The notes under the pieces: generated by a model | Databases searched by the model: none | Seen by the model: the letters and a program-made list of their open reading frames with translations, nothing else | Told to the model about the DNA's origin: nothing | Assembly (NCBI GenBank): GCA_008632985.1 | Contig: QPGO01000009.1 | Location: forward strand, 186,001 to 250,000 | From: Psammoneis japonica | Lineage: Eukaryota | DNA: 64,000 nucleotides | Direction of reading: 5' to 3' | Translations under genes and position numbers: made by a program | Shown: piece after piece, positions 5,398-12,045 of the stretch | How positions within the stretch are numbered: position 1 is the stretch's first letter | How the letters are laid out: each line of letters opens with the position of its first letter

Positions 5398-5638
5398 AAA
5401 GAGTTTCGCCATCATTGCCCCCTCACCTTTGCTTTTCATCTCTTTGGAGTGTGTCATTTGGCTCACACAATTTGTCATTTGGAGTCCATGGGTGCCTGTC
5501 ATTGTGCAAGTTTGCAGTTTACATTTACAACTTTTGGCAACCCACACCATTGAAGACTGCCAAGGCAAGTGTGTTGAGGAGTGCAGGAAGCCCAGCGGGA
5601 CTCCCCATTGGAGACATTGACTTGCCAGCTCAACACTC
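5398..5638 (+). repeat. Diverged direct repeat, copy 1 (copy 2 at about 10852-11099)
   Basis: Shared blocks GAGTTT.GCCATCAT, CAAGTTTGCAG, TGCCAAGGCAAGTGTG, AGTGCAGGAAGCCCA and ACATTGACTTGC in the same order. Confidence 0.65.
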
Positions 5639-5724
5639 ACTCCAAAGAGTCACCAGCACTGTGGCAGTGCCTGCAAACACTGACCCACATTGTGCAGTCA
5701 ACTGAAATGCTGCATGCCTGCACA

Positions 5725-8700
5725 ATGAGTGGCAGAGGAGGTGGCAGAATGAGCAGCCAAGGTCAAAGCTGTGGTCACAGCAGAGGTGACAAGAGCCACA
5801 TGTCCTCTGACCCAAAAAAGAAGACCAACACTGAGAAGCACATTCAATGCTGCACATGAAGACATCAAGGAGATGATCATTCATTGCATGCAAAAGCAGC
5901 ACGAACAAGGCATGCATGTGGCAAGGTCTTTAGAAGACACAAGGTGCAAGGACTTTGATTCCAAAAAACCTGCCTTAAAAGTTTCCATGGCAACAGTGCC
6001 TGACCCAGCACATGTGGGATGTCAGGCAGTGTTGCAGCAGAAGAGCTCAAAGACAAGGAGCTGGAACATGAGCACAAAGCAGAGCCAAGTGACAGCCACA
6101 AAAAAAGCAAAGCAGTTCAAAGAAAACAAGACAACTTGACTCAATGAGAGGTGTGCATCCACTCCGTGCACTCACCAAGGCCCTGAAGAACATTCCAGAT
6201 GTGAGGCAACAAGAGAGCAAGATGTGGAATGATTGCCTGTGAAGATTCAAGATCAGCAAGATGCTGCAATGAGCAAAGGCTGGGAGACAGGAGACAGAAT
6301 GCCAGATGGATTTGCACCCAATGCAAAGGAGTGCAAGGACAGTGATGTGACAGTCCAAACCAAGCTGCAAGATGCAGCACTGGAGACATGGATGTTGCAC
6401 CTGTTCTTGGAGATGTGCAGTGATTGCTGCTGCAAGATTTTAAAGGAGAGCTCCACAAGAGACTGCAGTCTGGGTAAAGACACCCATCTGAAGACTCTGG
6501 ATGTGGCAGTGGATGCACCGCTGACCCACCAAAAAGACCATGATCCTTGCAATCAACACAAGAGGAAGAACAACAAATGAAAAGACCACAAGAGCTGCAA
6601 TGGCAATGGCAACAATGTGACAACAGTCAGTCCAATGACACAAAGGACTGGATCCATGCCCAGAAGAGCAGCCAGAATGATGCTGCAGTGTGTGCTGGAG
6701 CTTCTCAGCTTTCTGACTGGCACACTTTTGGTCTCGCCATCATCTGACTCACCATGTGGTGGCTTGCAAACACACAACTGATGTCACTGACAAAGACAAA
6801 AGTGAGCATGAAGATGCAAACAAAAAGAAAATGAAGACAAACCCAGAAACATCATCACCCACTCAGAAGATGATGACTGTGAAGACAAAGTGGACTCGGG
6901 CAAAGAGTGCAAAGAAGCAAAAACAAGATCACAGCCAATGAAATGCCCAGACAAGAACCCAGAAGTTGAGGATGAGGACTGTGATGGCTGCAACAATGCC
7001 AAAGAGTTTCCAGAAGATGATGACGAAATGCAAGATGACACAAAATGGGAAAGAGAAAGACTGGAGGAAGAGGCAAGAGCCACATCTGCTGCTGCAACAG
7101 CTGGGGTTGGCAGATCCTTCAACAACTCACATTTAGAAACAAAAAAAACATTCCACGAAAAAAAGCTTGATTTGTGGGAGTGACAGATGCCACAAAAAAG
7201 AAGCGCGAGAAAAAAAACTCAAGTGCTTTCACCATTTGTGAATGAGCATGAGCCCCAACCCAGAGGATGACATTGAGCATGATGTGGAAACAGCAATGGT
7301 GCTGGCACAAGCGATGTGCAAGATTGGCGACTGACTCCAATCAGGAAAGGGTGTTTTCTTTGCCCAGCAACAGTTTTTGCTGTGTGGCAAAGGCCTGAAA
7401 GCATTTGGCCAGAAGGGGCATGATTGCTTGAATGTTCCCAATGGAGAAGCAAGATGGCTGCACAAAGGGCAAATGGTTTGCAACAAAAAACTGACAGGAG
7501 AATGGCTGGACAAGGATGAGTTGGCCTGCCCAACGGTGCCATTGGAAGGAATGCCAATGACAGCCATTGTCGACTCTGTGGAAGAGCATGATGCGACGAG
7601 CGCTGATGCACCAAATGTGTTCATCCAGACATTGACTCCAAAACCCAAGGAGGGTGAAGACCAGATCATGATGAAGATTGCAGGAGTGCTGGTTGACATG
7701 CAGGTGAGCATTGATCCCAACTCACATGGGCCATTTGTGCTGGCCACAGAGAGGGGCGGGAAGAGAATCCCTCACATCCAAGTCATTTGAGCCATGCACG
7801 GCACACTGGTTGCAGCTCTGCCATGGCACAAACAGCTTTGCAAGGACTTGGAGAAAATCAAGTTCAAATTTTACCCACACGATCCATGCATTGCCAATCA
7901 ACCAGTCAATTGCAAGCAGTGCACCACACATTTCCAGGTGGAAAACCTGTTGTCAAGCCATTCAAACCCAAAAGCAAGTGACAAATTCCTGAGCTGGCTC
8001 AACAAGATGTGTGAAAGCCATGGCAAAGTCATTGCAACACAAGGAAATGAGCATGACAGCCTTGGAATGCCCCCCTGGACTTCAGACACAAGGGCGCTCA
8101 CAAGATGATCAATCAGTTCCCAGAAGAGATCAAGAGCATGGATGCTTCCATGGCACCAGTTTGAGAGAACCTGTTTGATGCCAGTGGCATGAGATTGCCA
8201 ACAAATGAAGCAAAGTTTTTTCGTGCATGGGTGGCCAAGGGACTGTTTGCACACAAGAGAAGCCACATGGATGCACACCTCACTGCCACAGCATTGTGCA
8301 CACATGAGTTAGAGAGCCTGCCAAAAAGGGCTGGGGAAAGCCAGTCTGTTGCACCAAGCACTTCAACTGGACACAAAATGAAGTCACCACACTGAGCACA
8401 AAAGACCTCGGAGTGATCAAGTGACATGCAAATGCGTCGTTCGCAGCACACCTTGATTTTAAGAGCCACACAGGATGAGTTGTGACCAAAAGTGACGGAG
8501 CAGTGTAGACCACCACATTGAAGTGCAAAAAGCTCAACACCCGGAGCAGCACAGAGGCTGAACTCACAGAAGACAACAACTCAACAACCATGATTCTCTG
8601 TGGGGATGAAGTTGTTCATGGAGCACTGGGGGGCATCCAATTGAGACAAGAATGTCCTGCACCAGGACAAACAAGAGCACCACACTGTTGGAAATGAGTG

Positions 8701-9790
8701 GGTGCAGGAGTGCCAGAAAGTGATCCAGAGCACCATCTGGCGGGGCAACAATCTGAGATGTGTGCCAGCATGACAAAATTTCCGTTGCTGCAGAAAGTCA
8801 GATTTGTCTTACGTTGTCAATTGCTTGATGTGAGTGCCGCATGCCGGCATGCAGACAACTGATGTTGTGCGTTTAACCAAGCTACAATCTTGCACGCTCA
8901 CATGCAAGTTGATTTGTGCAACACAATCTTGTCACCTGCCACATGTTGTTTTTACCACATGGTTTGTCCCACTCATTTTCACCCCACTTGTTTTTACAAC
9001 ACAAACAATGGTGCCCCCCTTTGCTGTTGGAAATGATTGTCCCGTGTGTGGCAAACGTTTTCTCCCAACTGGTCTTCAACACCACCTGAGAACTTGTCTT
9101 CCCTGCAAACTGTTCTTTTCTCAAAGCCTTCATGCCATGTCATCCCATCAATCCAACACTGCTCATGGCAAACAGCCCCAAATGGGAGAATTGGATGAAC
9201 AAGTGGCGCGGCAGTGACGTTCACACTGGCACGCAGCAGAAAATGACGATGGCAGAGGTGTCAACCAGGAACTCAACTCAGTTCGGCAGCTGCAACATCA
9301 TGGAATGTGAACCGGGCATTGACCAGGAAAGAATTTTTTCACACGGTGAAAAGCACCCAAGTGTCACACTGTAAAATGTCAGGAACGTTGTCCGTGTGCT
9401 TGTCAGATTTAAAGCACAGTTTGAAAGCAATGTGAGTTGGGAACTGGTCCGAAGGTAAATTGTCGCACGGTGCAAAGTGGGCAAGTGTTGCACTTGAAAA
9501 TGTTGGGAACATCATCCGCGTGGTTGTTGCACTTAAATTTTCTTGTGACACACGACAAAAAAATTGCATCAGAAGCAAGATTTCTGACACAGCGGGTAAA
9601 AAATTTTGAATTGAATTTAAAAAATTTTCAGACATGATGAGCAAGAATGTTGCGCGCACATTCGCGCACAATGTCAGATTGTTGCCCCACCAGACAACTT
9701 GACATTTGGCATTTCTTTGTCACCAATCAGATCAAGAAGGACAGCTCAAGAGCAAAGTGCTGTCCAACTGATGACACGCTTAGATGCAGT
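5725..9790 (+). mobile_element. Degenerate Ty1/copia retrotransposon (diatom CoDi-like): gag, RT and RNase H remnants
   Basis: Gag-like MSGRGGGR...HLFLE...CSLGKDTHLKTL; RT motifs ADAPNVFIQT, AMHGTLVAALPWH, PHDPCIAN; RNase H HANASFAAHLDFKSHTG, KLNTRSSTEAEL, QDKQ, and LDIWHFFVTNQ...CCPTDD after the nested insertion. Many stops and frameshifts. Confidence 0.88.
8734..9696. mobile_element. TIR-bounded DNA element (about 963 bp) nested in the Copia RNase H
   Basis: Left end CATCTGGCGGGGCAACAATCTGA versus reverse complement of the right end TGTCTGGTGGGGCAACAATCTGA. The Copia peptide SRA|LDI is split exactly around it. Internal CPVCGKRF...HLRTC zinc-finger-like peptide. Confidence 0.75.
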
Positions 9791-10851: not shown

Positions 10852-11099
10852 GAGTTTTGCCATCATCACCCCCCATCTTTGTTTTTCATTTCTCTCTTTG
10901 GAGCAAGCTCTTGTTTGGTTTGTGTGATTTGGCATCTGGCATTGGTGGGTGGTGCCTGTTGTTGCACAAGTTTGCAGCTTGCATTGACAGCTTTCAGCGA
11001 CCCACAGCTGCCGCAGATTGCCAAGGCAAGTGTGCCCAGCAGTGCAGGAAGCCCAACAGGATTCCTTTTTTGGCAACATTGACTTGCTGGCTTAAAACT
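10852..11099 (+). repeat. Diverged direct repeat, copy 2 of 5398-5638
   Basis: Same ordered blocks as copy 1. Some differences fit independent TA->TG versus TA->CA changes (GTGCAAG versus GCACAAG). Confidence 0.65.
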
Positions 11100-11678
11100 T
11101 TGGAAATGGCTTGGCACACATTTCAGTGGGCTCTCCATCTGGCTCTTTCTTTCACTGACTTTCTGTTGCTGCGGTGTCGCCAGGCTCTCACTTGCTGCCA
11201 GCTGGCCTGCCCCCCACCTTTCTCTCTTTCTTTCCCTTCTTCCATTTTTTCTGCTTTTCTCTTGCCAGAGAGGGGGGGTCCTGAGAAGGAAAAGCTGGCA
11301 GCCTGGAAGAGAGAGAGAGAGAGAGCAAGAGTGTGTGTTGCCAGAGCTGGGGAGAGCAAAAACTCAGAACTGCCACACAACTTTTTTGCAAATGACAAGA
11401 CAGGGCTGACTGTGTTCTTTGCTCCAGCATGCCTTGTGCTTTTTCAGCGGCACCCCAAGAAACTTCTCTTGGGGCAGACCTGTTTGGCCGTCATCTCGGC
11501 CAGCTCAACCAGGGCACGGGTGGAGCCTTGGCAGCCAGCGGGCACACCCGCCATCCAGGGCTCTTTTTTGAGAGCAAGCAAGGCCCACATTGAGCTCTGC
11601 AGTGGCCACCATGATGGTCCTTCTGGCGCCCTTCAAAGTGGCTCTTTCCTGGGGCTCTGCCCTGCCCGCACATGGCCC

Positions 11679-12045
11679 TGCAGCATGCGACTGTTATATA
11701 CATATCTATGATTATATATTATTTATATGTCAATCGTACCACAGTCGTGGATGCGTACAAAGGACAGAACGATCACACAGAGTTGATCGGATGTCGAGAA
11801 TTGCAAATACGATCGATTGACGATGTTGACATCTTACGTGTCAATAGCAATCGTATCCGGACAATCTGTTGTCACGAATATATTCTCCGAAAGGCCTTTT
11901 GTCTGTAGAAGCAGTACAGAAGCTTTAGGCCATTGAGAACTCGTTCGGAGAAACCAAAAATCACAGAGCAAAATTCAATCTTATAATTTCCACTTTTCGT
12001 ACACTATTCTACTTTCGTTTACACTCGTTCTTCGAGCATAGTGCA
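11679..12045 (+). repeat. 5' LTR of the gypsy element
   Basis: 364/367 identical to 16052-16418 by manual alignment; imperfect terminal inverted repeats TGCAG(C/T)ATGC...GCATAGTGCA. Confidence 0.93.

Follow-up and report, generated by a model that had tools for sequence, protein, structure and literature searches.

So far a single account exists of hypermutation directed at TpA in foreign DNA: a 2026 preprint on the chlorarachniophyte Bigelowiella natans (Mettrop et al., bioRxiv, 10.64898/2026.01.13.699255). According to the main text of that preprint, 231 of the 302 new single-nucleotide mutations in B. natans mutation-accumulation lines fell in two integrated viral regions, and 230 of these 231 were A>G or T>C transitions, all 230 on TpA. 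In the same source, reverse transcriptase and DDE domains are over-represented among TpA-poor coding sequences of B. natans, and an ADAT2-like deaminase is proposed. A measured mutation rate about 1000-fold that of the remaining genome is a further mark of the B. natans type. The subject here is a stretch of 64,000 nucleotides from the diatom Psammoneis japonica (assembly GCA_008632985.1, contig QPGO01000009.1, positions 186,001 to 250,000; hereafter the window), in which blocks of DNA, one of them containing an old long terminal repeat (LTR) retrotransposon and interrupted by a young one, are depleted of TpA. The phenomenon, seen in a diatom and on retrotransposons, is of the kind described once before. 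The rule by which neighbouring bases and run length set which TpA survive was not found in print: literature searches for a diatom report of TpA hypermutation returned none, and the main text of the B. natans preprint never uses the words "context", "trinucleotide", "tetranucleotide" and "flanking".

The likeness to B. natans, as described in that main text, lies in the conversion of TpA specifically to TpG or CpA on either strand of foreign or mobile DNA, and in a long-term depletion of TpA with enrichment of CpA and TpG. The hosts differ, a rhizarian there and a stramenopile here, as do the targets, giant-virus and virophage DNA there and LTR retrotransposons here. The depletion is deeper in the diatom, with an observed/expected ratio of about 0.04 against a Rho of 0.45 in the viral region, and CpG is lost from the same blocks, whereas "CpG" has 0 occurrences in the text of the preprint. 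A second point of comparison is fungal repeat-induced point mutation (RIP), which, as summarised in the sources used here, makes C>T changes mostly at CpA and thereby creates TpA. RIP resembles the present case in killing transposon copies in place by mutation, with a dinucleotide preference, sharp-edged blocks and many stops; it differs in that TpA is here destroyed, by A:T to G:C change. Diatoms carry DNMT4, which is related to fungal RID and is given no known function in the part of the source consulted (PMC9998398).

Depleted blocks were delimited by per-kilobase dinucleotide counts together with the gaps between successive TpA, giving six blocks of 17.9 kb in total:

2340 to 11678, no strand: depleted block 1, TpA and CpG nearly gone and CpA/TpG enriched; 30 TpA, 28 of them in TTA/TAA
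16419 to 16881, no strand: continuation of block 1 on the far side of a young insertion; 0 TpA in 470 bp
20037 to 22224, no strand: depleted block 3; 5 TpA and 40 CpG in 2.2 kb
24711 to 27398, no strand: depleted block 4; 7 TpA, 6 of them in TTA/TAA
37228 to 39265, no strand: depleted block 5; a single TpA (gatTAaca) in 2 kb, with a TA gap of 1777 bp
51795 to 52957, no strand: depleted block 6; 0 TpA in 1163 bp

The second of these is treated as a continuation of block 1 because a young element has inserted into that block. Strand-symmetrised rho values for blocks and for the rest of the window are 0.04 and 0.62 for TpA, 0.28 and 0.97 for CpG, and 1.67 and 1.13 for CA/TG; such clustered windows of depleted TpA and enriched CpA/TpG are the long-term signature of hypermutation of the B. 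natans type. Per-kilobase observed/expected ratios in block 1 run from 0.01 to 0.12 for TpA, 0.07 to 0.49 for CpG and 1.4 to 2.5 for CA/TG, and gaps between TpA reach 1574 bp. The only trinucleotides to fall below 0.6 of background in the blocks are those that contain TA or CG, and G+C is hardly changed (0.514 in blocks, 0.488 outside). Block edges are sharp, TpA density recovering within tens of bases. The 3728 CA/TG dinucleotides in the blocks divide into 1790 CA and 1938 TG, and the process is therefore strand-symmetric. Since TGA is the only stop left, long spurious open reading frames appear in the blocks; in annotation, such frames would be called there while profile searches miss the transposon proteins. 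Block 1 shows a strong strand asymmetry in its left part (2340–5398), with 1093 T and 975 C but 362 A and 629 G, and contains there direct repeats (2910–3169 with 3246–3505; 3978–4099 with 4159–4277), short tandem arrays and long spurious frames in several reading frames.

The few TpA left in the blocks are far from randomly placed. The initial annotation had counted nine TpA between 5530 and 8760, eight of them in TTA or TAA, with one GTAG exception, and an exact recount returns the same figures, the exception being gtgTAgac at 8506. The eight are cttTAgaa at 5931, cctTAaaa at 5976, tttTAaag at 6441, gggTAaag at 6475, attTAgaa at 7134, tttTAccc at 7872, agtTAgag at 8310 and tttTAaga at 8460. 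A similar pattern had been reported at 9–11, 26 and 52 kb. It is clear in 8761–11690 (14 of 15) and in 24711–27398 (6 of 7); the block at 52 kb is free of TpA and only its edges (5 of 7) show the bias, so that the pattern is not visible in 51795–52957, nor in 16419–16881, because there is no TpA in either. The share is 6 of 6 in 2340–5529, 3 of 5 in the 20–22 kb block and 1 of 1 in the 38-kb block. Over all blocks, TTA/TAA accounts for 38 of the 43 TpA; outside them it accounts for 595 of 1663 (Fisher p = 2.4e-12).

This bias of the surviving TpA is real and not an effect of composition. A first-order Markov expectation from the composition of the blocks is 0.536, against 38 of 43 observed (binomial p = 1.2e-6). 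As a control within the blocks, flanks of this kind accompany 1749 of the 4062 other pyrimidine–purine (YpR) steps, CA, TG and CG (Fisher p = 1.6e-9 against TpA). Among YpR steps flanked by T on the left and A on the right, TA makes up 5.9% in blocks and 7.5% outside; in the A-flanked YpR classes of the blocks TA accounts for only 1 of 1530. The same comparisons bear on the idea that the bias is an artefact of composition or assembly, produced by common T- or A-runs or by miscalls at modified bases. AA/TT is indeed raised in the blocks (rho 1.31 against 1.13), but T occupies position -1 in 24% of CA/TG/CG half-sites and in 60% of TpA half-sites. Independent k-mer contigs from sequencing run X1, which may share their sample with the assembly, match eight pieces of block 1 (332–1654 bases, depth 46–76) with 0–2 differing letters and so argue against an assembly artefact; the window is nearly unmatched in sequencing runs X2 and X3. 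The Tyr to His/Cys pattern described below likewise reflects real substitutions, and an artefact is scarcely credible.

When survivors are compared with numbers expected without depletion, which are taken over from a reference (the flanking genes, the young element or the other YpR steps), a steep order of contexts emerges. TTAA retains 14 of 25.1 expected, CTAA with TTAG 12 of 52.7, GTAA with TTAC 12 of 91.2, CTAC with GTAG 3 of 126.6, and CTAG 1 of 43.2; GTAC has 0 against 71.3 and TTAT with ATAA 0 against 88.1. The other ATAN/NTAT contexts have 1 survivor against 220, making 1 against 308 for all ATAN/NTAT. Depletion across NTAN contexts is thus strongly non-uniform after correction for composition, which was the check proposed with the initial annotation. 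Reverse-complement contexts behave alike (TTAG 6 and CTAA 6; TTAC 7 and GTAA 5; TTAT 0 and ATAA 0). An additive model in which each strand acts independently, through the base 5′ of T, yields loss exponents of 4.6 for A, 2.1 for G, 1.5 for C and 0.2 for T, and the order A > G > C > T is unchanged when the young element serves as a second reference.

The initial annotation had drawn from TTA/TAA a symmetric target, VTAB, recognised by an enzyme as a single double-stranded 4-mer. Flank rules of this kind exist: a VATB motif has been described for N6-methyladenine (6mA) methylation at ApT in eukaryotes. A two-class VTAB model is far better than a uniform one (Akaike information criterion, AIC, -19.7 against 29.9), and all eight directly observed changes described below lie in VTAB. 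The additive per-strand model with four parameters (AIC -58.8) is nonetheless 39 units better still, and it matches a saturated ten-class model (-55.1). TTAT and ATAA, which VTAB should spare, have no survivors against 88 expected in undepleted DNA; their Markov share within the TTA/TAA class, 0.108, compares with 0 of 43 (p = 0.007), which implies that A before T (or T after A) cancels the protection afforded by the other flank. Depletion also reaches the TTA/TAA class, about 5-fold (trinucleotide ratio 0.18), and protection extends beyond the 4-mer: T occupies 52 of 86 strand-symmetrised half-sites at -1, 55 of 86 at -2 and 38 of 86 at -3, against 0.24–0.26 in controls. Survival is accordingly graded with the longest flanking T- or A-run, rising from 0.011 with no run (5 in blocks, 1045 in background) to 0.06 for a run of 1 (10, 372), 0.16 for 2 (10, 135) and 0.60 for at least 3 (18, 66), a gradient that a 4-mer site does not predict. 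The rule is best described as a nearest-neighbour preference on each strand, with protective T/A-tracts, rather than as a palindromic 4-mer; nothing in the data calls for a palindromic recognition site, and a symmetric VTAB enzyme is very unlikely. The rule in this form rests on one 64-kb window, with 43 surviving sites and 33 more in the replicate that follows.

That replicate is a second retrotransposon, inserted into block 1:

11679 to 16418, plus strand: young, very high-copy LTR retrotransposon; LTRs at 11679–12045 and 16052–16418, 367 bp, 99.2% identical
12950 to 15250, plus strand: interior of that element, with partial loss of TpA and normal CpG

The strand was assigned from A-richness and an RT-like (RT, reverse transcriptase) read-through judged by eye. 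Summed k-mer depth for this family is 8,000–54,000, against about 50–450 (mostly 70–200) over most of block 1. The interior has 33 TpA where about 120 would be expected from the rest of the element, so that about three quarters are lost, while CpG is intact (112 CG in 2.3 kb). Loss of TpA is therefore separable from loss of CpG, and recent or ongoing. The hierarchy of the blocks recurs: TTAA retains 9 against 7.5 expected and ATAT 1 against 17.9, and survival for runs of 0, 1, 2 and at least 3 is 0.13, 0.38, 0.44 and 1.27. What the interior shows is the process of the blocks at an earlier stage. The two LTRs, with 29 TA and 21 CG each, differ at three positions, all exchanges of TA with CA or TG, in GTAT, GTAC and CTAT, and of six variants listed for copies of the family, three are TA>CA, in GTAG, ATAG and CTAT. 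The young element has no long open frame, and TpA is abundant in its LTRs and in the ~1 kb next to them but scarce in its core; the element looks like a non-autonomous element with ends kept by selection for mobility and a mutated interior.

The early stage bears directly on whether survivors were spared or re-made. Surviving TpA could have been created anew, by run-extending slippage (TTTCA to TTTTA, TGAAA to TAAAA) or by C>T at TCA. A rise of survival with run length is what run-extending substitutions predict, and the source pool is very large, the CA/TG of the blocks numbering in the thousands. The three TpA in the LTRs of the old element described below, each present in one LTR only, fit gain or loss alike. 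Yet the young interior, its CpG intact and its LTRs still nearly identical, leaves little time for re-creation of TpA, and it already holds 9 TTAA where uniform depletion would leave 2.1 (P = 3e-4) and shows full retention at runs of at least 3. Direct changes, moreover, struck VTAB sites and spared TTA/TAA sites, and C is not enriched at -2 (10 of 86), against an origin at dipyrimidines. New TpA would also be destroyed again unless they arose in contexts that are poor targets, so that re-creation still needs the context preference it was meant to replace. The early-stage replicate thus favours survivors that were spared rather than re-made, and an origin by new mutation is quite unlikely.

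The direction of change, and its timing relative to integration, can be read from the older element that occupies much of block 1:

5399 to 11099, plus strand: old, dead Ty1/copia-type LTR retrotransposon; LTRs at 5399–5637 and 10850–11099, 72% identical
7335 to 8105, plus strand: RT coding remnant of the old element, with one internal TGA and phmmer relatives

A six-frame read-through of this element against Pfam gave no hit, only a sub-threshold zinc-finger match. The RT remnant, in contrast, has 2048 phmmer relatives at E <= 0.001 (best 6.2e-55), and RVT_2, the Ty1/copia reverse transcriptase family, was found at E <= 1e-5 in four of five tested matches, three of them above the Pfam cut-off. 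Two of the affected elements are LTR retrotransposons. The old LTRs differ in 83 of 278 aligned columns; 61 of the differences are transitions, and these include 13 double differences of CA in one LTR with TG in the other. Compared with related copies found in run X1, the window shows six more double differences of this type. LTRs are identical at insertion, and doubles of this kind imply that TA or CG was resolved independently in each copy after integration. The stretch from 8800 to 10000 contains 13 of the 43 surviving TpA and has a higher CpG density (26 per kb); it seems to be a less mutated part of the old element, or a later insert.

In an alignment of the RT remnant with 20 relatives, the consensus residue is kept in 68 of 110 conserved columns. 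None of seven conserved Tyr is kept: five are His (CAY), one is Cys (TGT) and one Ser. Conserved Arg is changed at six positions, five reading CAN or TGC and the sixth Gly (GGA). These replacements give the direction, TA to CA/TG and CG to CA/TG. Of the inferred steps 14 give CA and 4 give TG, an imbalance not relied on as strand bias because the choice of a stop-free stretch excludes CGA>TGA and counts over the whole element are near equal (CA 681, TG 606). A>G or T>C transitions on TpA, the B. natans class of mutation, account for all three young-LTR differences, five of the eight sites of the duplicate described next, and six of the seven Tyr codons, now CAY or TGY.

Changes can be followed most directly in a duplication at the edge of block 3:

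19601 to 20377, plus strand: tandem duplicate, two copies of ~393 bp, 90% identical, straddling the edge of block 3, which falls inside the second copy

Five of eight TpA sites are changed in the second copy (B), in ATAG, CTAG, CTAC, GTAG and ATAT, and those kept are TTAC, TTAG and one CTAG. The copies also show nine exchanges of CG with TG or CA; losses amount to 5 TpA and ~6–7 CpG in copy B, against 0 TpA and ~2–3 CpG in copy A. Together with the LTR pair, the duplicate contains all seven of the changed contexts listed in the initial annotation (GTAT, GTAC and CTAT in the young LTRs; CTAG, CTAC, GTAG and ATAT in the duplicate). Pooled, eight of the 27 VTAB sites show a direct change, and none of the 11 TTA/TAA sites does (one-sided Fisher 0.045).

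The inequality of the two copies matters for two other explanations. RIP needs duplication and mutates both copies, whereas one copy here is much less affected; as copy A lost no TpA, and as TpA is removed rather than made (Tyr to His/Cys), fungal RIP was rejected. Another explanation dispenses with a dedicated mutator and invokes GC-biased conversion or repair between copies of transposons. TA to CA/TG does raise G+C, and many diverged copies are available for it (1828 contigs at 90% or more). However, CpG is driven down to an observed/expected ratio of 0.28 in the very same blocks, and G+C stays close to that of the surroundings; the loss of CpG supports the case already made against general GC-biased conversion in the initial annotation. 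Conversion would also have to act on one dinucleotide, with a neighbour hierarchy, and to pass over the first copy of the duplicate. The affected region in B. natans, as the preprint describes it, is single-copy (10.64898/2026.01.13.699255). Gene conversion as the sole cause is most improbable.

Taken together, these results are best accounted for by a post-integration, strand-symmetric and neighbour-dependent hypermutation of TpA to CpA/TpG in silenced transposon DNA, probably by an enzyme, a reading to which we assign a probability of roughly 0.6. In silenced, integrated transposon DNA, TpA would be converted to CpA or TpG on both strands (A:T to G:C), at a rate set by the neighbours separately on each strand. 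Loss is fastest after A (ATA/TAT), intermediate after G or C, and slow after T, and a longer T-run, or an A-run after the A, slows it further, leaving TTAA and TTTA/TAAA-type sites close to immune. Survivors would sit in TTA/TAA because the TpA that remain are mainly the slowest targets. The agent is most likely an enzyme acting on the adenine of 5′-T-A-N-3′, which it would flip out or deaminate (A to inosine, read as G), with a preference for N of T > C >= G > A. Poor activity on A-tracts may stem from contacts with the enzyme or from their opening less readily; slow base-pair opening in A-tracts is one possible reason for the protection by runs. Sharp edges, the restriction to one dinucleotide and the graded hierarchy all point to an enzyme rather than to a general repair bias. 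Of the enzyme proposed in the initial annotation, therefore, the enzyme-like specificity stands, on the strength of the non-uniform contexts and sharp-edged blocks, and the symmetric VTAB target does not. The order of contexts and its recurrence in the young element, the direction of the changes, their occurrence in integrated DNA, the strand symmetry and the independence from CpG loss are observed; the enzyme itself, adenine as the base attacked and the reason why runs protect are inferred.

The base attacked could instead be the thymine of 5′-N-T-A-3′, for example by hydroxylation to 5-hydroxymethyluracil, with the product copied or repaired as C and a 5′ preference of A > G >= C > T. As the data are strand-symmetric, adenine and thymine are indistinguishable as targets; the two fit equally well, and the fitted parameter is in fact the base 5′ of T. 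In dinoflagellate DNA, TpA and TpC are the preferred sites at which 5-hydroxymethyluracil takes the place of T. Against attack on thymine, no sign of such a base or enzyme was met for diatoms, TpC trinucleotides other than TCG are not depleted in the blocks (TCA 1.07, TCT 1.16, TCC 0.82), and the B. natans authors, in the text of their preprint, favour adenine deamination, without proof (10.64898/2026.01.13.699255). Attack on thymine is unlikely, if a serious contender.

Known deaminases provide partial parallels for such an enzyme. APOBEC/AID proteins also act against retroelements by enzymatic deamination with a preference set by the neighbouring base, but they convert C to U on minus-strand cDNA before integration and leave strand-biased G>A, whereas the changes here are symmetric, follow integration and concern A:T pairs. 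APOBEC-type editing of cDNA was rejected on the near-equal CA (681) and TG (606) of the old element and on its LTRs, which diverged after integration with 13 CA/TG doubles. The 3′ preference of ADAR favours G, unlike the order T > C >= G > A found here. Otherwise ADAR, which makes A to I changes and prefers U before the edited A in the account given in the B. natans preprint (10.64898/2026.01.13.699255), fits the present pattern in its T/U before A; it is, however, an RNA-acting, metazoan family, and the LTR-pair differences argue for changes in integrated DNA. TadA/ADAT2 enzymes resemble the postulated agent in deaminating both A and C in DNA, in a natural tRNA target with U before A, and, in the TadA domain of base editors, in contacts of bases on both flanks with the enzyme, as far as the sources consulted describe them. 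Amphioxus BjADAT2 is reported to deaminate DNA at TCG for C and at GAA for A (PMC10354150); its TCG preference matches the most depleted CpG trinucleotide here (TCG/CGA 0.20, TCGA 0.10).

Several points weigh against this interpretation. The adenine preference of BjADAT2, as given in the part of the source consulted, is GAA and not TA (PMC10354150), and known deaminase preferences in general differ from the 3′ order found here. Numbers are small, with 43 survivors and 33 in the replicate, and every expected value stands in for the ancestral composition by way of a borrowed reference. Some of the surviving TpA could be newly made rather than spared. The young family has hundreds of copies, and the three LTR differences could reflect mixing of copies in assembly. 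The test on direct changes reaches only p = 0.045, and one of its eight changes lies at the poorly aligned edge of the duplicate. In the RT remnant, 15 of 33 inferred transition steps fall outside TpA and CpG, and in the second copy of the duplicate A>G occurs at GAAG, GAAAT and AAT, again outside both dinucleotides, which suggests a weaker activity on A beyond TpA. Finally, metagenomic relatives of the element supplied no outside replicate: among 79 loci carrying relatives of the copia RT, five non-overlapping 600-base windows with rho TA below 0.25 contained 41 TpA, of which a share of 0.415 stood in TTA/TAA, like other bins. The search patterns demanded intact HVD and HxYL motifs and so favoured unmutated copies, and the result tells neither way. 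Three of these relatives (loci L036, L035 and L063) have TpA rho of 0.23–0.43, CpG of 0.17–0.55 and CA/TG of 1.43–1.64; the same hypermutation process may operate in other organisms, the sites at these loci being too few for the rule.

The accompanying loss of CpG has a context order of its own. Ratios of blocks to background are 0.20 for TCG, 0.24 for ACG, 0.36 for CCG and 0.55 for GCG, and by tetranucleotide 0.10 for TCGA, 0.18 for ACGT, 0.48 for CCGG and 0.59 for CCGC/GCGG; GCGC (1.12) alone of the contexts given is not depleted. Diatom transposons are methylated, according to the part of the source consulted (PMC9998398), and the loss of CpG is presumably a separable process, the decay of methylated CpG. 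As that decay predicts for silenced repeats, CpG gives way to TpG/CpA, with a rho of 0.28 and conserved Arg codons CGN turned into CAN or TGC. It accounts for the CpG to TpG/CpA half of the pattern and is unable to remove TpA.

A diatom signature far deeper than that of B. natans, and on LTR retrotransposons, suggests that the system is widespread among marine algae. It is possible, if short of even odds, that a DNA-level "reverse RIP" is common to diatoms and chlorarachniophytes, an enzyme destroying mobile DNA after integration by conversion of the A (or T) of TpA, with the fingerprint ATA > GTA >= CTA >> TTA and immune T/A-tracts. Were this so, the fingerprint would be specific enough to pin down the enzyme, put dates on insertions and reveal the system throughout the SAR (stramenopile, alveolate and rhizarian) supergroup. 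A rule of neighbours and run length is the type of fingerprint that linked APOBEC enzymes to mutational signatures, and it offers an in-vitro assay (ATAT against TTTAAA oligonucleotides), a test for candidate deaminases and a basis for genome scans.

Genes in the window retain TpA. Among the products of its long open frames are a PXA/PX sorting nexin, Est1 and an EIPR1-like WD40 protein, and such frames indicate a eukaryotic genome poor in introns. A protein-atlas search with the sorting nexin was taxonomically uninformative. A glycyl-tRNA synthetase fragment on the minus strand (23061–24026) is 78–82% identical to its counterparts in the diatoms Helicotheca, Ditylum and Attheya, 77% to that of Cyclotella, 74% to that of Odontella and 60% to that of Bigelowiella natans, which marks the window as diatom DNA. 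Est1 lies in two overlapping frames (30143–31150 and 31077–32642), which a short intron or a frameshift could explain, and the sorting nexin (PXA / PX / Nexin_C, 45066–51235) in three, for which short introns or frameshifts could account. The intergenic stretch 41950–42800 has a TpA observed/expected ratio of ~1.5 and is rich in CTAG, GTAG, CTAC, GTAC and TACTAG words; like the genes it retains TpA, in the very contexts that vanish from the depleted blocks.

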